Source of the DNA: Candidatus Heimdallarchaeota archaeon
Lineage (GTDB): Archaea; Asgardarchaeota; Heimdallarchaeia; Hodarchaeales; Hodarchaeaceae
Direction: 5' to 3'
Assembly: GCA_020353515.1 (NCBI GenBank)
Contig: CP070695.1
Span: 3,001,231-3,065,230, forward strand
DNA length: 64,000 bases
Below are positions 43,444 to 53,377 of this stretch, piece by piece; the first letter of the stretch is position 1, and the number at the start of each line of letters is the position of its first letter. The notes under the pieces are model-generated. The model was not told the DNA's origin. It saw only the letters and a list, made by a program, of their open reading frames with translations, and ran no database searches. A program made the position numbers and the translations under genes.

Positions 43444-44544
43444 CTAAAGCTCTTTTTCTCTTAAACGATTAATAGTGATCTGCAAAGCCTCATTTAAGGT
43501 GGAAAGAAATAAAAAACCTTTTGATGTGATTGAAAAGTTTCTATATCGGGCATCTTGAAGAACTTGAGCAGATACAAATGCCTCGATGTACTGTAAGTCA
43601 ACTAGCTTTTTTATTTCTCTGGTAAGGGTAGGAGTTGGGATATTTAAACTTTGAGCTAATTTAGTTGGGTTGGTTTCACTTGGATCCTGATAAGCAATCT
43701 CTATAAGTGTTAAAACTGTTCTTCCTTTCATCTCTGATCTGAGATCATTTTGAAAAGTAGTAGGAAAATACTCTACCATGGATGGCTGACTTACTGGTTC
43801 CAATTTTGGAATATCTCTTAATTCAGTAAGATAAGCATCTCGAATATTGTCGAGACCAATGACTACTTTATGACGAATTTCTTTTAGAAATTCAGCTTCA
43901 CTCGACTGTACCAATTCAATAAAGGTTTTCTGTCCTTTGAACCTTGGACTAAGACGCAAATATATGAAACCAACCCCTGAGAGAAGAAAGATAGAACCAA
44001 AAAGACTAAATAGTAAAACAAGAAGATTATCAGGTTCTGTATCTGTGTTTCCGTTAATGGTTGTGGTAGTAGAAGATTCCTCTTCCTGCTCTTCCCGATT
44101 ATCAATAGTAAAAGGACCATCGGAAATATCTTCTTTTGTCTCCCAATCCTTACTCCCTGCAATAACCTTAACTAAATTATTAACGCCAAAAGTTTTATAA
44201 AGGGGAGTGTTCCACTCGTAAGTCTCTTCTAGGATGGAAAAAGCCAATTGAATCCAATTTTCCCCACCATCATGGGAATAAAAGACAGAATACCAAGGGT
44301 TATCTCCTAAGTACTGAATATCAAGGGTCCATTGAATTATCACAGTTCCGTTAAGAGTTTCCCCTCCATTGGGAAATAAAACTGTAAGCCCATTATTTTG
44401 ACTAGAATCATCGTTTCCAAGAGGATAGTGGAATTGTTCACTCGAAAATGAACCAACATTAATTATTGGACAAATAGGTATAAAAAAAATGGTAATAAGG
44501 CTTCCTAGTATTAATAGATTAATTTTTCCCATGATGAATTCCAT
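43444..44544 (-). CDS. Membrane-tethered winged-helix regulator with extracellular beta-sandwich domain
   Basis: Signal peptide; TVLFPNGGETL..W..YS.DGGENW..WNT..SDGPFTI; TM LLVLLFSL..FIYL; C-terminal PTKLAQSLNIPTPTLTREIKKL..DARYRNFSITSKG. Confidence 0.8.
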   Translation of the reverse strand: MEFIMGKINLLILGSLITIFFIPICPIINVGSFSSEQFHYPLGNDDSSQNNGLTVLFPNGGETLNGTVIIQWTLDIQYLGDNPWYSVFYSHDGGENWIQLAFSILEETYEWNTPLYKTFGVNNLVKVIAGSKDWETKEDISDGPFTIDNREEQEEESSTTTTINGNTDTEPDNLLVLLFSLFGSIFLLSGVGFIYLRLSPRFKGQKTFIELVQSSEAEFLKEIRHKVVIGLDNIRDAYLTELRDIPKLEPVSQPSMVEYFPTTFQNDLRSEMKGRTVLTLIEIAYQDPSETNPTKLAQSLNIPTPTLTREIKKLVDLQYIEAFVSAQVLQDARYRNFSITSKGFLFLSTLNEALQITINRLREKEL

Positions 44545-45149: not shown

Positions 45150-46061
45150 ATGAAGCATAGTACGAATTCTAAACAGTGGATCATCAGTGACAGTCCATCT
45201 GAAGAGGAAATGAAAATAGTTCAGAAGGGAATTGAGGATCATAATAAGAAATTTTCAAGTGGTGGATTAGATATTCCTACTCCTGATATCAGTTTGGTTT
45301 TGAAAGACTCTAGTGGGAACATCGTTGGAGGTGTGATCACAAGTATGCTAACTGGAGTGATGCACCTAGAGGTTCTCTGGATAGATGAAACATATAGAGG
45401 TAGAGGTCTGGGAAGAGATCTTGTCTTACAAGCTGAGCGGATTGGTAAAAAAAAGGGTTACTCTGCGTCACAGACATGGACCTTTTCATTTCAAGCACCC
45501 GAGTTTTACCAAAGCATTGGGTACAAGGTCGTTGGAATTTTCGACGGATATACCAATGGTATCACTGAATATATTCTCCTCAAGAAATTTGAATCAGATG
45601 AACAGAACCCATATGAGGTTAATGAACTAAATCCCGTAGACTTTACCATTTTAGAAGACAAATCCGAGACATCGATGAAAATTCTTCATGAGGGATTACG
45701 TAACTACGTCGCGGAGCATGTTGGCGAATTACGCAAGAAAAATCCAGGAATTCACATTAAATTGGTAATAAAGAATGAAGATGACCAAGTCATAGGAGGA
45801 GTACAAGCTTATACAACTCTTAAGGCAATACATGTCGTAAATCTTTGGGTCGATGAGAAATTCCGTAATACTGGGTTTGGTAGAGAGCTTTTGACGACTG
45901 CTGAAAAAATTGCCAAAGAAAATGGTTGTATTTCAGGATTATTGAATGTTTTATCATTCCAATCCCCAGAATTCTTTCAAAAGCAGGGATACATCATCTT
46001 CGGGGTTTCTGACGGTTATTCTGATTCAATCAAGGAATATTTTCTTAAAAAGAGATTCTAG
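45150..46061 (+). CDS. Tandem GNAT acetyltransferase
   Basis: Two copies of LWxDExxRxxGxGRxL..AE..SFQxPEFxxxxGY. Confidence 0.9.
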   Translation: MKHSTNSKQWIISDSPSEEEMKIVQKGIEDHNKKFSSGGLDIPTPDISLVLKDSSGNIVGGVITSMLTGVMHLEVLWIDETYRGRGLGRDLVLQAERIGKKKGYSASQTWTFSFQAPEFYQSIGYKVVGIFDGYTNGITEYILLKKFESDEQNPYEVNELNPVDFTILEDKSETSMKILHEGLRNYVAEHVGELRKKNPGIHIKLVIKNEDDQVIGGVQAYTTLKAIHVVNLWVDEKFRNTGFGRELLTTAEKIAKENGCISGLLNVLSFQSPEFFQKQGYIIFGVSDGYSDSIKEYFLKKRF

Positions 46062-46116
46062 ATATATAGGAGAAAGATTTAGAACTTCATTATAAAAATT
46101 TGAAGAAGATTCAGGG

Positions 46117-47025
46117 ATGTCTATACAATCACGACCTTACAATAAAGGCAAAGACTTCGATTCTATTATGAGGTTTCTAGCAGATCTCTATGAAAGAACC
46201 AAATCTTACGAAAATTGGTTTCCAGATCGTTTTGAAAATAGCAGTGACACACGAGAAGATGGTGTTAACATCTGGGAGAAGGTTGAAGAAACAAGTACTC
46301 CACAAAAAAGGACTATCGTTACTTTAACTACTCGTGATTCTCCTAGGGATTTTTTTCTTCACGTTGACCCAGATTATCGGTATGTAGAGAGAGAAATGAT
46401 AGGATGGATAGAACAACAATTCAGAAAAATGAAGAAAAAACCAGAAGGGACAGAAAAACTATGCATTAACATTCTGGAAGGAAACCCTCTGCGTGAAGCT
46501 TTACTTACTGAGTTAGGTTATAGAAATGAGAAAATTTATGGATATTACAGAATCCGTAAAGGCGATTCACCGATTTCTGAATACAAGTGCCCTGAAAACT
46601 TCAAAATAAGAACAATAGAACGATCAGATTATGATCAGCTTGCGTTACAAATTAGAAAAGTATTTGGTCATGGAGAATGGTTTACCGCTGAAGTATTAGA
46701 ATGGATTGCTCAGTGTTCATTTTATCGAGAAGACTTGGATCTTGTTGCAGTAACTCCAGATGGTACAATTGCCTCCTTTTGTACCTTTCGACTTGACCCA
46801 AATAGTAAGATCGCCAGCTTAGAACCTATGGGAACAAATCCTGACTACAGAGGACTTGGGTTAGGAAAATCACTAATAACAGAGGGAATCAAAAGGTCAA
46901 TGAAATATAATCCACCATTTTTCTATATAGATGGTGCTGCAAATAATCCAGCTGCGAACCGTTTATACGATGCGACCGGATTTACAGAAAAATATGCTAT
47001 AAATTCATGGGTAAAAGAGATATGA
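46117..47025 (+). CDS. GNAT acetyltransferase
   Basis: LEPMGTNPDYRGLGLGKSL, NPAANRLYDATGF. Confidence 0.88.
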   Translation: MSIQSRPYNKGKDFDSIMRFLADLYERTKSYENWFPDRFENSSDTREDGVNIWEKVEETSTPQKRTIVTLTTRDSPRDFFLHVDPDYRYVEREMIGWIEQQFRKMKKKPEGTEKLCINILEGNPLREALLTELGYRNEKIYGYYRIRKGDSPISEYKCPENFKIRTIERSDYDQLALQIRKVFGHGEWFTAEVLEWIAQCSFYREDLDLVAVTPDGTIASFCTFRLDPNSKIASLEPMGTNPDYRGLGLGKSLITEGIKRSMKYNPPFFYIDGAANNPAANRLYDATGFTEKYAINSWVKEI

Positions 47026-47043: not shown

Positions 47044-47146
47044 TTTTATCATCAGCAATGACATTTTTTGTTTCAGAGTGCTCCTTTTGGGTTTCTGATG
47101 GCCATCCTGACGCAGAAGAGTATTTTCTCATAAAGAGATTCTAGAT
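47044..47146 (+). pseudogene. Degenerate copy of the 3' end of the GNAT gene at 45150-46061
   Basis: Translates VSDGHPDAEEYFLIKRF* versus VSDGYSDSIKEYFLKKRF*; AAAGAGATTCTAGAT identical at 46049-46063 and 47132-47146. Confidence 0.8.
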
Positions 47147-49894
47147 TTTTTTCATCTTTTTCTGTTTCTCAAATAATTTCTGAGTTAAAAAATCCCCAAC
47201 TTTTTCCATTTTATCATCGATTGTAACCAGTTGTGTTTCGGAATGCTCTTTTTCTGGTTTCGGAACGCTGAATATAGACAGTATTCCAACAATCTGATTT
47301 TCTTGATTCATAACTGGAAGTATTGACTCTCCAGTGACTGAAAAGACTCCCCAGGCTTCTTTCAGAGTTTGATTTAACGTGAATGTATAGTGTATGGGAA
47401 AAGCTACTTCATAGACTCGGATATTATCTAATTTATTTATCTTTTGAGCCCTATTGAAGGGAATTATTCCTGTAGGAACACCTGTTTCTGTTACTATCCA
47501 TGTCTTTTTTTGTGCATTAGGACTCACTAAATCAGTTGTAAATTGATCCCATTCAACAACATCGAAGTTATCCTGAATATAATCATTGATAGAATTATCA
47601 GCGTTCCTTATTTCAGATAAATCTTTTGAAATTTTATCAAAATCGAACGAATATTCTATTGGTGTCTTTATCAATTTAATTGCTTCACTAGTTACTAATA
47701 TAGAGGAAAAAGATTTTCCTATGGTACCATTAGCGTAAAAATCTGATTCTTTCTCTTCATAGATACGGTGATTGTGCCCTACAACAATTTTTAGATTCTT
47801 CAGTCTCTTTAGAGATCTGAATTTGGAAATATGTTGATCCATTGGTGGTCTGAAATCTTTCCAGAAACCAAGGTCACCGTGTTCGATCCAGATGTTTTCG
47901 TCGGTATAGTGATTACCAAGAAAATGAATATCTAATTCTCGTTTTAATTTATCTCGGAATTTGTCATAGAAGCTTTCAGGGTCATGGTTACCAGCAATTA
48001 TATGGATTCTTTGGTTTCCTAGTGAATTTTGGATTTGTGATAATTCATTGAGAAGAGAGACTCCTTCTTTGTCTGTTTCTTCTAGCTCGTTTACTCTATC
48101 AATGTTTAGAACATCACCAGCGATAATAATGGACCTAACTTGATTTTTAATACCTATTTTCTTTATTTCTACAAGACATTTTTTAGCAAGTTTATTATTG
48201 AGTCCCCAATGGAGATCAGAAAAAACGAGGAGAGGATATGCAATCGGTTCGTGTCTTTCTTCCGATTCTTCTGGTTCCAGATTTTCGAGAATATTACCAT
48301 AAACTTCTTTCATGGTGCTTCTTAAGTCATTATTCATCAATTCTAAAGCATCAATGGGCAATTCATTAGTTAGTTTGTATTTTAATTGAGATAAAATAGT
48401 ATATCCTTGGATAAGCTTATTACTTTGCTCCTCTGTTATAATGTTCCTTTCCATGGCTACTTTAAAGCGGTCGATTGTGGAAGAAGTAAATGTTGTTTCT
48501 GTAAGAACCGCAAAAATAGTACCAATATCTTGTAAAGCAGTTAACGCAGAAAATTTCTTAAATATCGAATCCCATGTATAGGGAGCACAAACTCTTAAGT
48601 ATTCTCCTAATTTATCCGTTTCATTATCAAAAAAATCAGTTACTCGTAATAAAATTGGAATCAGTTCATGAAACGATTTTTTGGCGGCTTGAGTAATTGA
48701 TCTTCTCAAATAATCCCCCTTTCCGATCGGTTTTTCATAAATGGGAATCATATCAATGATCGATTTATAGATAGACCAGCAATACTTACTTATTCCATCC
48801 TTCCGCTCTTCAGGAGACAACGGAGTTTTTCGAAGTTGTTCTATAGACCTTAACATTTTATCGAGTTCGATTCTCTGATTTTTCTCTAAATAACTTTCAT
48901 CACCTTTCAGAAATGCTCGCAAAATATTCGATATAGAATTCTCATGAAAATTAAGATTTTTTAAATTCTCCATCTTACATAATTCAAGGTTGGGAACATA
49001 TCTCAAAACATTGTCCAGAGTTTCACCTACTTGTAAAAATTGTTTGTTATTTCCTTCGTGAATCAGAAGCATGTCCAAATCAGAGTTCTTAGAATACTCA
49101 CCCCTTGCATACCCTCCACAGATACCAATTATGAAGTTACTTGGAATCCCTACCTTTAGATGGTTATCTGGGTTAACTTGGAGGAGACGATTGAACTCTT
49201 GATTTTTTTCTGCTAACAACACAGCACTTTCAAATAGAAGCATTAAGCGTGAAAAGAGATTGGATGATGTTCTTTCACACCAAATTGATCCCATATAAGT
49301 ACTTATTTGCTTCATATTCCAGTTAAGTTTAGCTGTTTCTTTTAAATTCCGATAAGAGAGAAATTGCTCCAACTTTGGAGGACGAGAATGGGGAGTAGAA
49401 GAATAGATATATTCAAAAAGGAGATTGGTTGAGCTGAGAAAATCAGGAAGAACGGTAACTGCCTCATTCATAGGTCCCTTTATTATGATGAGATCGTAAA
49501 TGTTTACTGAATTGTTATTCCTTTTTAATAACAAGATACTATCAATAAGCTTGATCTCACCAAGAGTATTGAAAAGCTCCCAATAACCCGATCTAATCAT
49601 TTTATGGTTAATTATATTCTCAAAAAGGTCAATGGAAGATTTTATCACATTGCTTTTCGAAAAACGGTCTTTTGATAGTTTTTTTGGATCTATCCAGTCA
49701 TCATCTAAGAAGAATATCCCTTTTTTAAACAGACGATCTTCTGGAAGATGAAAAACTTCCCCTTCCTGTGTTAGTAGAAGACTAATGGCTGGAGTTGAGA
49801 TATATTTAAGATCTTCTAGGGATAATATCTTCTGTAAAAATTTTTGATCATCTAAATAAAACTGTAAAGTTTTTATTGCACTAGGAAAATCCAT
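47141..49894 (-). CDS. Multidomain protein: GlnD/DUF294-type nucleotidyltransferase + helical substrate-binding domain + metallophosphoesterase + CBS pair
   Basis: GGYARGEYSKNSDLD; STIDRF..IITEEQSNKLIQGYTIL; SDLH, GD, GNHD, HGD, GHNH; TLKEAW..LPVMNQENQIVGILS. ATG at 49894 lies 2 bp after the upstream stop (the ORF track uses TTG 49939). Confidence 0.8.
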   Translation of the reverse strand: MDFPSAIKTLQFYLDDQKFLQKILSLEDLKYISTPAISLLLTQEGEVFHLPEDRLFKKGIFFLDDDWIDPKKLSKDRFSKSNVIKSSIDLFENIINHKMIRSGYWELFNTLGEIKLIDSILLLKRNNNSVNIYDLIIIKGPMNEAVTVLPDFLSSTNLLFEYIYSSTPHSRPPKLEQFLSYRNLKETAKLNWNMKQISTYMGSIWCERTSSNLFSRLMLLFESAVLLAEKNQEFNRLLQVNPDNHLKVGIPSNFIIGICGGYARGEYSKNSDLDMLLIHEGNNKQFLQVGETLDNVLRYVPNLELCKMENLKNLNFHENSISNILRAFLKGDESYLEKNQRIELDKMLRSIEQLRKTPLSPEERKDGISKYCWSIYKSIIDMIPIYEKPIGKGDYLRRSITQAAKKSFHELIPILLRVTDFFDNETDKLGEYLRVCAPYTWDSIFKKFSALTALQDIGTIFAVLTETTFTSSTIDRFKVAMERNIITEEQSNKLIQGYTILSQLKYKLTNELPIDALELMNNDLRSTMKEVYGNILENLEPEESEERHEPIAYPLLVFSDLHWGLNNKLAKKCLVEIKKIGIKNQVRSIIIAGDVLNIDRVNELEETDKEGVSLLNELSQIQNSLGNQRIHIIAGNHDPESFYDKFRDKLKRELDIHFLGNHYTDENIWIEHGDLGFWKDFRPPMDQHISKFRSLKRLKNLKIVVGHNHRIYEEKESDFYANGTIGKSFSSILVTSEAIKLIKTPIEYSFDFDKISKDLSEIRNADNSINDYIQDNFDVVEWDQFTTDLVSPNAQKKTWIVTETGVPTGIIPFNRAQKINKLDNIRVYEVAFPIHYTFTLNQTLKEAWGVFSVTGESILPVMNQENQIVGILSIFSVPKPEKEHSETQLVTIDDKMEKVGDFLTQKLFEKQKKMKKI

Positions 49895-49896
49895 TT

Positions 49897-51867
49897 TCAA
49901 TCTTCCATTAATTGTTTCAAGCCCAGTGTTGTGATCCAATCAGGCCTCCCTAATTGCATAGAATCTTCAGGTGGGATAAAATTGAGGTCTTTGAGAGTCT
50001 CGAGAGCTTCCATTCGTATAAACGAGGATTCCTCTGGATCAATGAATATCTTAAATACTGGCCTAGTGATACTTGATGTCTCGTGCTTTGCCAAGGCTTC
50101 TAACGAAGCCTGTCTTAGAAGTTCATTAGAAGACCGTTCTATTACTGAATTTAGAAGAAAGTCAGTTACTTCTGAATTGGGAAATGTTCCTAGATTTCTT
50201 AGGGCTATCGCTCTAATTATAATAGAGAGGTTTTCATCCTTGGCAATAGCAATCAATATTTCTTCATTGATCCCATGTCGCGCGAGGAAATCCACAATGG
50301 ACCTTTGAACAGGGATGGGAGATTCTTTAATTGCCTCTAGAGTATTAAACGATTGATGTAAATTACTTGAAAACCAAGAAAGAGAGTCAAGAGCTCTTCC
50401 TCTAAGGAATGGGTCATCCATTTTATTTTCAGCAATGGTCTTGAGGAAAGGTACGAGATTAAAGCCGACTCTACTGATGAGAATTCTTAGAGCAAGTTCA
50501 CGGAGCTGAAAAGGTTGTGTTGAATCTTCTAAAATGTTAAAGTATTTGGTAGTGATATGATTGGTAGATAGAACAGATTTAATTGCTGATAAACTTGCAT
50601 CAGGAAACTCATCAAATATTTTTCTCCGTAGAAGTTGTGCAGATTCTTTTAATTTGTTCTCGGGAATTCCTTGACCAGAAACATGAATAGAGGCTCGAGA
50701 ATTATGAGGGTGTACTTCAAAAGAGATTTCTGGAGATTTCTTAGCAAACTCCTCTACTTGATAAGTTAAATGAAATTCCTCTGCGCCCTCAATTTCGAAC
50801 CCCACCTTGGAAGAAATGTGGTGTTGTAAATAATTCAGACAAAGCCACTTAAGAGATGCTAACTCATAAGGATTTTCGAGAATTTCAGTTATTAACTGAT
50901 TAATTTTCTCCTCTTTCAACTTAAGTGGTAAATTTCTAATAATTTTACTTCTCTCTTCAAGTGGAACCTTTCTATTAAACAATAACTTCCATTCTTCATG
51001 CCTTCTATAACTGGAAACACTTCCAAATAACAACTCTTCTTCATTTTTCGCGGTTTTTATACCAGGATGATTTTTTATTGTTTCAATAAGCTTTACAATG
51101 TCTTCCAGTTCAGTTTCTCCCTCGAATCCTTTCTCAATGAGCTCCTGTTTTGATAACATTTCCGTGGAGTCATCAATAATCTTCAGGAGGGAGTAAATAT
51201 TATCAATGATGGGATTGACGGAAAATTTTTGCTTAACTCTGAAGAATCTGAAGGTGCATCTAGGAAATCCCTCTGCGATCGTTTCTTCACGCTCAAACCT
51301 TACCCACTTGGCCACATTTTTAGCAATAATTCCATCATATTCACACATAATTGACCCAAGATCTTCACGGCCGAATTCCTTGAAGATTTCATGATAAAGG
51401 CAACGATTGATATCAAAAGCAAACTCCTCCTCGGTAGCTGAAATCTCTTGAAGTTTGAAGAATTCATTATCATAGGTTTTTTGATTACTTTTTCTAGTAT
51501 TTTCGACAAAAGTTGACCAAGGATTTTTGGAAGAGGACATGAATCGTCTCTGTGGTTCTAAGACAAAATCTTCCAGCATTACCTTATAAATTGTTAATAC
51601 ATGTTCTGTTAGTTGCTTTTTATCTTTTTCAGTAGATGGAAGTGATTCCTCTAGAGCTATAACAAACAAAGGATTTATTCCATGAAAAATTATTGTTTCA
51701 TTTTGTTTTTCTTTTAATTTACCAAATAGTTCACTAAATCGCGTAGTAAAAGAGGAAAGGATTTTTTCGCTCTCTTCCGAATTAAAAGCGTTTTTTATTT
51801 GATTAGATGTTAAAGTAATAATAAACTGGAATAACTGATCCATGTCAAAAGTCGCAGCCATTTTCAT
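49897..51867 (-). CDS. ATC_hydrolase/V4R-like domain + winged-helix-like segment + HEAT-like repeats
   Basis: FDINRCLY..MCEYD..RFEREETIAEGFPRCTFRF; repeats such as DPFLRGRALDSL, SIIIRAIALRNL, ELLRQASLEAL, SFIRMEALETL. Confidence 0.75.
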   Translation of the reverse strand: MKMAATFDMDQLFQFIITLTSNQIKNAFNSEESEKILSSFTTRFSELFGKLKEKQNETIIFHGINPLFVIALEESLPSTEKDKKQLTEHVLTIYKVMLEDFVLEPQRRFMSSSKNPWSTFVENTRKSNQKTYDNEFFKLQEISATEEEFAFDINRCLYHEIFKEFGREDLGSIMCEYDGIIAKNVAKWVRFEREETIAEGFPRCTFRFFRVKQKFSVNPIIDNIYSLLKIIDDSTEMLSKQELIEKGFEGETELEDIVKLIETIKNHPGIKTAKNEEELLFGSVSSYRRHEEWKLLFNRKVPLEERSKIIRNLPLKLKEEKINQLITEILENPYELASLKWLCLNYLQHHISSKVGFEIEGAEEFHLTYQVEEFAKKSPEISFEVHPHNSRASIHVSGQGIPENKLKESAQLLRRKIFDEFPDASLSAIKSVLSTNHITTKYFNILEDSTQPFQLRELALRILISRVGFNLVPFLKTIAENKMDDPFLRGRALDSLSWFSSNLHQSFNTLEAIKESPIPVQRSIVDFLARHGINEEILIAIAKDENLSIIIRAIALRNLGTFPNSEVTDFLLNSVIERSSNELLRQASLEALAKHETSSITRPVFKIFIDPEESSFIRMEALETLKDLNFIPPEDSMQLGRPDWITTLGLKQLMED

Positions 51868-51911
51868 CCATTCCAGATGTCCACTGAAGCTATGTTTTTA
51901 CTTGTTTATAA

Positions 51912-51946
51912 ATACATTTATATATATTAAGAGATACATTTATGTA
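51912..51946. promoter_or_regulatory. Direct repeat ATACATTTAT x2 in a ~106-bp divergent promoter
   Basis: 51912-51921 and 51934-51943 (22-bp period); TACAT-TT-ATGTA palindrome at 51935-51946. Confidence 0.4.
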
Positions 51947-51973
51947 CTAGTTATTGTACTCACAGGGAATAAT

Positions 51974-52366
51974 ATGAGTTCCAAAAACAGAAAAAAAAGG
52001 CTTAAAAGAACCTTAAAGCAAAGAGCAGAAGAAATTTTTCGTTTTATTAACAAAAGCAGTGAACCAATCGCTAAATCCCGATTTAAAGATATTGGTCTAA
52101 GTACAACATCAGCAGATAACTGGTTAGACTTGATAATCTATATTCAAAATCAAAATCGCCTTCGATTATTCAAAGCTGGTAGTTATACTTTCGTTGACAA
52201 ACAAGTATTTATTGACCGAATATCATCGAGTAAGTACCTCCAATTATGTTGGAATAACTTTCTAAATCCAGAGGAACCTTATGAAAAACGCCTTGGTTAC
52301 TTAAATGACTTTGGAAATGCTTATTTTTTCCTAGAAAGAGCAAAACTTGATCAAGTGGAAAAATAA
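51974..52366 (+). CDS. Small basic winged-helix-like protein
   Basis: ATG at 51974 avoids overlap with the divergent gene; Lys/Arg-rich N-terminus; EIFRFI..PIAKSRFKDIGLSTTSADNWLDLI. Confidence 0.65.
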   Translation: MSSKNRKKRLKRTLKQRAEEIFRFINKSSEPIAKSRFKDIGLSTTSADNWLDLIIYIQNQNRLRLFKAGSYTFVDKQVFIDRISSSKYLQLCWNNFLNPEEPYEKRLGYLNDFGNAYFFLERAKLDQVEK

Positions 52367-53068: not shown

Positions 53069-53377
53069 GGGGAAAAACAGTATTAAGAGTAAAAAGGTGG
53101 ATCTAATCTGTACCTGATAAGAGATAATTATTCAACCTTAATATCCTTTCTTCGGTTAAGATTCCTGAAACATTATTAAAATATTGGGAGAATGAAAGTA
53201 TACAATCTTCAGTCATAATGATAGCTATACCGTCATTTTCTTAAATGAGTCTGAAATACTTCTTGGACGAAACCTAACTGCTTGAAACAAGATTACAGAG
53301 TTTAAGAGATTTTTAAATTCAATAATCTTCCATCAACACCCTCTCAAAGCTGATTAGCTTTTTATCATTGTAGGTAC

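Follow-up and report, generated by a model that had tools for sequence, protein, structure and literature searches.

Three genes lie side by side in a 64-kb stretch of the genome of a Candidatus Heimdallarchaeota archaeon (GenBank contig CP070695.1; the whole stretch is hereafter called the window, and positions refer to it unless another locus is named). The contig is the only one of its genome, which is 96% complete, and measures 4.94 Mb with a G+C content of ~35%. Gene B encodes a large protein in which an N-terminal domain, a Pol-beta-type nucleotidyltransferase (NTase), a helical domain resembling HEPN domains, a metallophosphoesterase (MPE) and a probable CBS pair follow one another; gene A, upstream of B on the same strand, encodes HEAT repeats preceded by a sensor-like domain, a winged-helix-like module and a small alpha/beta domain; and gene C, which encodes a small protein, diverges from A (Table 1). 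Together they form a conserved cassette that, on our tentative reading, may add nucleoside monophosphate (NMP) to a protein and remove it again.

The open reading frame (ORF) of gene A comprises 656 codons and ends in TGA (49897–49899), and that of gene B comprises 917 codons and begins with an ATG at 49892–49894; the junction, which reads GAA GAT TGA AA ATG GAT on the minus strand, leaves 2 bp between the stop codon of A and the start codon of B. A longer version of B that starts at a TTG overlaps gene A, and is not needed because the homologues of B share the start MDF…. The first in-frame ATG of gene C that is accompanied by a homologous N-terminus lies at 51974, which leaves a gap of 106 bp to the ATG of A at 51867, and ATACATTTAT occurs twice in this gap. 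Both the TGA-AA-ATG junction and the divergence of a small gene over ~106 bp holding a 10-bp direct repeat had been described in the original prediction, which was made from the sequence of the window without database searches, and both are confirmed here.

The three genes were searched by tblastn against all related loci that were fetched. Gene A immediately precedes B wherever any upstream sequence is available, C is divergent and ~100–120 bp from A in all 11 of the 11 loci reaching that far, and the 2-bp gap between A and B recurs in each of the three loci with gene calls that were read (L013, L014 and L015); the flanking genes vary from locus to locus. The constant order of A, B and C, combined with unrelated flanks, indicates that the three genes travel as a unit. 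As a gene unit, the self-contained three-gene circuit of the original prediction is thereby upheld, and the search for co-occurrence and synteny in archaeal genomes that accompanied it, now performed, found the three genes together in Hodarchaeales loci. Identity among the homologues of A and B is 55–84% (the alignment of B contains 23 sequences), and the nearest homologues of the three proteins are named Hodarchaeales, Hodarchaeota, Hodarchaeum mangrovi, Heimdallarchaeota B3 and Kariarchaeaceae. Of the 21 closest genomes searched, 13 yielded gene B, several of those without a match being incomplete metagenome-assembled genomes (MAGs); 19 genomes taken from four other families of the class yielded no match. 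When a profile of the NTase-plus-helical region of B was compared with 1.84 billion representative proteins, seven matched at E ≤ 0.001, six being family members or fragments and the seventh appearing spurious; the B family is therefore narrow. The three-gene family was found only in Hodarchaeales-type genomes and metagenomes.

The NTase core of protein B contains a GG…DxD motif, of which G260, G261, D272 and D274 are invariant in the 23-sequence alignment, and is recognized by the Pfam model NTP_transf_2 (22.7 bits, cut-off 21) in 23/23 members. A profile of B residues 170–548 was aligned with residues 1–384 of Escherichia coli GlnD using hhalign, and the two aligned over residues 88–175 (79 columns, 35% identity, E = 4.2e-7, probability 92.7%), an alignment that extends from the GG…DxD motif to the x-G-D block; two archaeal minimal nucleotidyltransferases (MNTs) used as controls aligned with B over 26 and 38 columns only, which correspond to the motif. 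The nearest neighbours of B by language-model features in the Atlas are clusters with DUF294, DUF294_C, SidM_N and GlnD_UR_UTase (scores 0.82–0.88), and these serve as a lead only. Judged by sequence, we would place the NTase of B closest to the GlnD-like clade and outside any curated family. A profile of the whole of B matched nothing significant among the PDB sequences, and a search with PF03445 across 151 genomes of the phylum, which matched small MNT-like ORFs only, was of no help in classifying B. The AlphaFold model of B, with a mean predicted local distance difference test score (pLDDT) of 65, is poor in the NTase core and the C-terminus and usable in the N-terminal domain, the helical domain and the phosphoesterase. 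The helical domain resembles YutE, SO_3166 and other HEPN chains (VIA-align Z ~10 over 114–134 residues); no conserved R…H pair corresponding to the Rx4–6H RNase motif was identified in residues 398–543 of the 23-sequence alignment, and this domain is therefore not a HEPN RNase. A HEPN-type fold also comes after the NTase in GlnD, GlnE, DUF294 and kanamycin nucleotidyltransferase (PMC3710099). Residues 1–169 gave no match in Pfam, among the PDB sequences or in the Atlas, where the feature search used residues 1–175.

The phosphoesterase of B is recognized by the Pfam model Metallophos (PF00149; 33 bits, cut-off 21.5), and either this model or Metallophos_2 matches 21/23 members. The motifs D560-x-H562, G593-D594…D599, G635-N-H-D638, H672 and G706-H707 are invariant in the 23 sequences, and H709 is kept in at least 90%. 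Given the conserved NTase motif and these five MPE motifs, both active sites of B look intact. The best structural match is LpxH (VIA-align Z 15.4, 174 aligned residues, root-mean-square deviation (rmsd) 3.3; Foldseek E = 1e-7), followed by MJ0936 (Z 13.6), SbcD/Mre11 (Z 12–13) and the polymerase B-subunits. At the C-terminus, the CBS model (PF00571) reaches 14.1 bits, below its cut-off of 24, and matches 5/23 members in a region that is poorly modelled; two CBS-like units are visible in the alignment of residues 745–917, and the top PDB matches of a profile of this segment are mostly CBS chains (MJ0922, a CBS-pyrophosphatase, ST2348, PH1780, OpuCA and MJ1225; E = 0.002–0.05), the match to ST2348 spanning the whole CBS pair.

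Protein A begins with a domain that matches ATC_hydrolase (PF14196) with 68.9 bits (cut-off 28.1) and in which C156, C175 and C204 are invariant across the alignment; Foldseek related this domain to the beta chain of soluble guanylate cyclase, which bears an H-NOX domain (E ~1e-3). Galperin and co-workers related ATC hydrolase to V4R, HNOB and MetOD1 by secondary structure and a three-Cys cluster, and the same cluster is found in the phenol sensors PoxR and MopR (PMC5847659), which agrees with the earlier description of A as V4R-like. The domain belongs to an expanded family in this organism: the genome contains nine ORFs with an ATC_hydrolase domain (L019–L027), mostly stand-alone proteins of 160–311 aa. 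The following segment, here called module X, is modelled as helices 219–233, 240–245 and 254–262 and a hairpin at 271–282. Residues 351–435 resemble the C-terminal domain of aIF2-alpha (VIA-align Z 10.2, rmsd 1.6, 75 residues), which is a resemblance of fold only. The remainder of A consists of HEAT repeats, as indicated by HEAT_2 (PF13646; 34.4 bits, cut-off 27.7) and by a match to alphaRep (Z 15.4, rmsd 2.8, 175 residues); HEAT repeats are protein-docking scaffolds.

Protein C belongs to no Pfam or NCBIfam family, and its description as a winged helix rests on homology to A 214–312, modelled as three helices and a beta-hairpin. A profile of the C family matched the X segments over 98 columns (hhalign probability 97%, E = 9.4e-11) when isolated X segments plus the intermediates of the divergent locus L016 were used, and C against the whole of A gave a probability of 8% only; in addition, C matched the X segment of the L016 ATC-X-EutA protein by BLASTP (E = 5e-11). 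These matches indicate that C is a free-standing paralogue of module X. A predicted complex of A (656 aa) and C (130 aa) gave a score of 0.11 (mark 0.32), which counts neither for nor against binding. Across the window and loci L013–L016 and L031–L040, C occurs in two discrete subtypes: C1 proteins are 70–97% and C2 proteins 33–38% identical to C of the window, and the two are ~35% identical to each other. Between genomes whose A and B are ~70% identical, C1 is 96–97% identical; in L016 its identity remains at 70%, against ~35% for A and B compared with those of the window. C1 evolves at a far lower rate than A and B. A tree of B, which was asked whether the C subtypes had been swapped between cassettes, does not resolve its base and is compatible with a single origin of C2. 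Beyond gene C, a tblastn match of the C2 type (53173–53313; 40% over 47 residues, E = 0.005) with internal stop codons lies in an unannotated gap and was treated as noise; it may be a relic or a chance match.

The region between the start codons of A and C appears to be an operator. The 10-bp repeat was found by a DNA pattern search and was not reported by a general repeat finder; ATACATTTAT is present in four copies in the window, compared with 0.49 expected from shuffles. Its first copy lies in a 12-nt block (ATATAAATGTAT on the A/B strand) that is identical in 9/11 loci and one or two bases off in L016 and L039, and a T-rich TATA-like element comes after this block. Repeats of the form TAYATWAATGT, spaced 22–24 bp apart and numbering two or three, are present in all 11 loci: beyond the 12-nt block, towards C, one more copy is found in C2 loci and two in C1 loci (totals of two versus three), and the degenerate third copy in the window is the counterpart of the third copy in other C1-type loci. 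The pattern TA[CT]AT[AT]AATG occurs 71 times in the 4.94-Mb genome, and the sole pair spaced 18–28 bp is at this site. We infer that a dedicated regulator binds these repeats, C being the obvious candidate, and that the site controls both divergent promoters. A scan for sigma-70 promoters and terminators, a model unsuited to archaea, gave nothing above shuffles in this DNA.

Table 1. Genes, protein domains and promoter elements of the cassette (positions in the 64-kb window).
Feature	Positions	Strand	Basis
Gene B, 917 aa: N-terminal domain, NTase, HEPN-like helical domain, metallophosphoesterase, probable CBS pair	47141..49894	-	Translation, Pfam, 23-sequence alignment (55–84% identity)
B residues 1–169, alpha/beta N-terminal domain	49388..49894	-	Modelled with pLDDT ~80; present also in split form P0110
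B residues ~240–335, Pol-beta-type NTase core, GG…SDLD then A-x-x-x-G-D block	48890..49177	-	NTP_transf_2, hhalign to GlnD
B residues 398–543, four-helix HEPN-like "NTase substrate-binding" domain	48266..48703	-	VIA-align, subthreshold DUF294_C
B residues 554–746, metallophosphoesterase	47657..48235	-	Pfam Metallophos, conserved motifs, VIA-align, Foldseek
B residues ~765–880, probable CBS pair, then conserved SIFSVPKP motif and C-terminal helix	47255..47602	-	Subthreshold Pfam, PDB profile search
Gene A, 656 aa (start perhaps M3 at 51861): sensor-like domain, winged-helix-like module, alpha/beta domain, HEAT repeats	49897..51867	-	Pfam, AlphaFold model (mean pLDDT 83.7)
A residues 1–210, ATC_hydrolase / V4R / H-NOX-like domain	51238..51867	-	PF14196, E = 1e-18
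A residues 214–312, module X, winged-helix-like, homologous to C	50932..51228	-	hhalign, BLASTP, AlphaFold model
A residues 351–435, small alpha/beta domain	50563..50817	-	VIA-align
A residues 436–656, HEAT repeats, sole part of A retained in the split variant	49900..50562	-	HEAT_2, alphaRep match
Gene C, 130 aa: Lys/Arg-rich N-terminal tail, module X-like winged-helix-like core, two C-terminal helices	51974..52366	+	Homology; no Pfam family
Putative divergent promoter/operator region	51868..51973	.	Comparison of loci
Repeat copy 1, ATACATTTAT, inside the 12-nt block ATACATTTATAT, overlapping the TATA-like element TTTATATA	51912..51921	+	DNA pattern search
Repeat copy 2, ATACATTTAT, 22 bp from copy 1	51934..51943	+	DNA pattern search
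Degenerate third copy, GTTATTGTAC (reverse complement of GTACAATAAC)	51950..51959	+	Read from the sequence, compared with L031, L039 and L016

Two variants of the cassette separate its core from its additions. In the split variant (L028 to L030, 30% G+C), the parts are encoded by genes with overlapping starts: a HEAT-only protein, which in L028 has 288 aa and matches A 442–627 (E = 6e-12); a protein of 533 aa comprising the N-terminal domain, the NTase and the helical domain; and an MPE-CBS protein of 376 aa that is 40% identical to B 551–913. The invariant core therefore comprises three parts, HEAT protein, NTase and MPE-CBS, to which the Hodarchaeales forms add C and the sensor-like head of A. 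The second variant, L016, is expanded, with the order C, an ATC_hydrolase-X-EutA fusion, Amidohydro_2, an ATC_hydrolase-X-HEAT protein and B, the last being 34% identical to B of the window. The fusion and the Amidohydro_2 gene lie between C and A (L016:2943–6233), and in the fusion ATC_hydrolase-X is joined to a full-length EutA-like ATPase (E = 2e-130). A Tn7 TnsA-like gene and a PIN gene are located near this cassette. The EutA homologue of the window's own genome has an ABC transporter and a molybdopterin enzyme as neighbours and showed no link to the cassette.

Several known systems share parts of this design. GlnD, like B, is a single chain that begins with a Pol-beta NTase, continues with a phosphohydrolase and ends in a domain for small ligands; unlike B, it has an HD domain as its eraser and two ACT domains as its sensors, where B has a metallophosphoesterase, a probable CBS pair and an extra N-terminal domain. 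Neither Pfam nor NCBIfam detected an HD or ACT domain in B, and the full-length GlnD model (TIGR01693) scored 15.5 bits against a cut-off of 519.4, matching residues 258–287 only. The original prediction had noted that no PII or glnA gene lies in the window, and this extends to the chromosome: no PII gene (PF00543) was detected in the 4.94-Mb genome, whereas 13/14 control genomes matched, and the two glutamine synthetase genes, adjacent and tail to tail (G000:C1:958623–960630), are ~2 Mb from the cassette. As no PII gene was found in a single-contig genome that is 96% complete, and the domain and model searches point the same way, the identification of B as a GlnD was rejected. B was likewise rejected as a CCA-adding enzyme, poly(A) polymerase or PolX, since it matched none of these families in any family search. 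The DUF294/COG2905 proteins, whose Atlas feature clusters are the closest, share with B a GlnD-like NTase, a HEPN-like helical domain and probably a CBS pair, but have the reversed domain order and a cNMP domain; B has no cNMP domain, carries a fused phosphoesterase and matches DUF294 below threshold. Bacterial DUF294 genes often adjoin a DnaQ-like exonuclease gene. The Rel/SpoT (RSH) enzymes also place an opposing NTase-like synthetase and hydrolase in one chain with C-terminal regulatory domains; their hydrolase, however, is an HD domain, their product is (p)ppGpp, and no search performed here revealed a sequence relation to B.

Further likenesses concern single domains. LpxH and Mre11/SbcD have the same fold as B 554–746 and all of its metal-binding motifs, but are 14–22% identical to it; the cassette has neither a Rad50/SbcC partner nor a lipid A pathway context, and the domain of B is fused to an NTase. 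The V4R domains of PoxR and MopR, and MetOD1, are related by secondary structure and a three-Cys cluster to the ATC_hydrolase family of A 1–210, and A has three invariant Cys; A 1–210, however, is fused to neither an AAA+/sigma-54 nor a REC domain and precedes a winged-helix-like module and HEAT repeats. The MNT-HEPN systems, which likewise place a HEPN-fold domain after a Pol-beta NTase, differ from B in that its helical domain has no conserved Rx4–6H, that MNTs align over a motif of 26–38 residues only and that B is far larger; according to the title of PDB 8xdj, MNTs AMPylate a protein. Nor does the cassette resemble a toxin-antitoxin pair. In PADLOC-DB 2.0, B matches only at its NTase motif (residues 250–298, E = 3e-4 or weaker) and A and C match nothing, and the cassette was accordingly rejected as a known anti-phage system. 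The literature searched on DUF294 NTases, PF14196 and Hodarchaeales NTases and metallophosphoesterases yielded no published description of this architecture, in line with the earlier remark that no described system with it was known.

We tentatively favour the view that B adds NMP reversibly to a protein docked on A, or to A itself, because its NTase is closest to the protein-modifying GlnD and because it has an obligatory HEAT-repeat partner; both GlnD and SidM/DrrA modify proteins. The cassette would then be a lineage-specific, self-contained regulatory unit, in which the GlnD-like NTase of B would transfer NMP to a protein hydroxyl and the fused metallophosphoesterase would hydrolyse the same phosphodiester. 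An adenosine-type ligand bound to the CBS pair could set the balance between addition and removal, thereby reporting adenylate or energy status, and translational coupling across the 2-bp gap may keep the synthesis of A in step with that of B. The HEAT repeats of A would dock B or its client, the Cys-bearing V4R/H-NOX-like domain of A could bring in a second ligand signal, and the target would most likely be A itself or a client held by A. C, in turn, may bind the direct repeats in the common promoter and set the level of all three genes, that is, by autoregulation. We infer every activity and every contact named here, as well as the protein nature of the substrate. Taken as a whole, a dedicated Hodarchaeales circuit for reversible protein nucleotidylylation, its design without a parallel elsewhere, with a GlnD-like writer, a metallophosphoesterase eraser, a CBS energy sensor, a HEAT/V4R-like sensor scaffold and a free copy of that scaffold's winged-helix module as its transcriptional read-out, is a possible interpretation and still a doubtful one.

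Several observations weigh against reversible protein nucleotidylylation. No target protein was identified for B. A winged-helix module as the NMP acceptor, as originally suggested, found no supporting evidence, and C and module X have no invariant Tyr, Ser or Thr in common. The best match of the phosphoesterase, LpxH, cleaves a UDP-sugar pyrophosphate, the subsequent matches are nucleases, and none is a known protein de-NMPylase. The NTase of E. coli GlnE gave no alignment with the B profile in hhalign; DUF294_C reaches 13.7 bits in B (cut-off 22.5), with subthreshold matches in 8/23 members (best E = 0.008), and DUF294 matches 2/23 members (best E = 8.5e-4) below its cut-off. The pLDDT of the NTase core is <50, which places its fold class beyond a structural check. 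Lastly, the EutA-like ATPase and the amidohydrolase in L016 hint at small-molecule chemistry.

The first alternative is that B, much as Rel/SpoT does, both synthesizes and degrades a free signal derived from nucleotides, with A as its regulator or receptor; the signal could be, for example, a dinucleoside polyphosphate, an NDP-X compound or an oligonucleotide, either linear or cyclic. A synthase and a hydrolase combined with a small-ligand domain fit Rel/SpoT as well as GlnD, and the structural neighbours of the phosphoesterase, which besides LpxH (Z 15.4) include the cNMP phosphodiesterase Rv0805 and Ap4A hydrolases (Z ~10), would suit such a product, as would the presence of a CBS-regulated pyrophosphatase among the best PDB sequence matches. 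The NTase of B, however, resembles GlnD and not a cyclase or CD-NTase; no SAVED or CARF receptor domain is conserved in the cassette, one SAVED gene occurring 4 kb away in L015 only; and the obligatory HEAT partner is more easily explained with a protein substrate. We regard a free messenger as unlikely, while taking it seriously.

Alternatively, B may reversibly nucleotidylylate a metabolite or xenobiotic, the ATC_hydrolase domain of A being an enzyme or a sensor of the substrate, in which case the system would serve metabolism or detoxification and not signalling. ATC hydrolase is by name a C–S bond hydrolase (PMC5847659), and kanamycin nucleotidyltransferase also consists of an NTase and a HEPN-like helical domain (PMC3710099). 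The insertion of the ATC-X-EutA fusion and Amidohydro_2 inside the L016 cassette, and the nine ORFs with an ATC_hydrolase domain in the genome, point in the same direction. Since the split variant is wholly without an ATC_hydrolase domain, yet keeps the HEAT, NTase and MPE-CBS parts, and since a built-in reversal would be unusual for a detoxification enzyme, this alternative appears distinctly improbable.

Processing of nucleic-acid ends, in which the NTase would perform untemplated 3′ addition, the phosphoesterase would trim or heal, and C and module X would bind nucleic acid, has models in CCA-adding enzymes with HD domains, Pnkp and LigD. It would account for the resemblance of the phosphoesterase to SbcD/Mre11, PolD DP1 and the Pnkp phosphatase domain (Z 9.7–13), for its weak match to TIGR00619 (sbcD, E = 1e-5) and for the strongly basic tail of C. 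It is nevertheless improbable too: B matches no PAP/CCA, PolX or ligase family and its NTase aligns best with GlnD, C adjoins its own conserved putative operator, as fits a transcription factor, and the CBS and V4R-like sensor domains suggest signalling. Finally, a role in anti-virus defence, with the NTase product or modification triggering growth arrest, is very unlikely, because the differing genomic contexts, the detection in 13/21 closest genomes searched and the weak NTase-motif matches to PADLOC candidate systems and HalB that speak for it are met by the absence of any PADLOC family beyond that motif, by a conservation (A and B at 55–84%, C at 96–97% where A and B are at ~70%) unlike that of fast-evolving defence genes, by the lack of a toxin-like effector in the cassette and by the incompleteness of several MAGs without a match.

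The interest of reversible protein nucleotidylylation as the preferred reading lies in its relation to bacterial regulation, where GlnD, GlnE and Rel/SpoT, as bifunctional enzymes that add and remove nucleotides, are central metabolic switches; we are aware of no equivalent in archaea whose set of partners is defined, and no search was aimed at one. The cassette is a compact and highly conserved candidate switch from an archaeal order, the Hodarchaeales, that is placed closest to eukaryotes, and it departs from the bacterial enzymes in having a metallophosphoesterase as its eraser and a probable CBS pair and a V4R-like domain as its sensors. A switch of this logic is familiar from GlnD and SpoT, but its parts and partners are new. 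As the parts are defined at the level of residues, and catalytic residues, a putative operator of 106 bp and a natural split variant are at hand, testing with recombinant proteins is feasible. Should the substrate prove to be a metabolite or a free nucleotide, a new enzyme family would be defined all the same, because the profile search of 1.84 billion proteins gave no relatives outside the family.

Among the sequencing runs listed as matching this DNA, none is of RNA and all are sediment-metagenome DNA runs. In the window, two GNAT acetyltransferase genes convergent to B (45150–47025) encode a two-domain protein of 303 aa and a second protein of 302 aa, and further along, an ORF of 366 aa (43444–44544) shows a weak MarR-type match confined to its C-terminus (residues 273–321, E = 0.002). 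In L015, a SAVED-domain gene (L015:14651–15757) is located downstream of B at a distance of ~4 kb, and on the upstream side there is a Lactamase_B gene that weakly matches anti-Pycsar; as they were seen in this single locus only, both are probably a coincidence. An Arf/Ras/Roc-type small GTPase gene (L015:4752–5270) adjoins C in the same locus and is not kept in the others; it is of interest in that the GlnE-like DrrA/SidM AMPylates a small GTPase.

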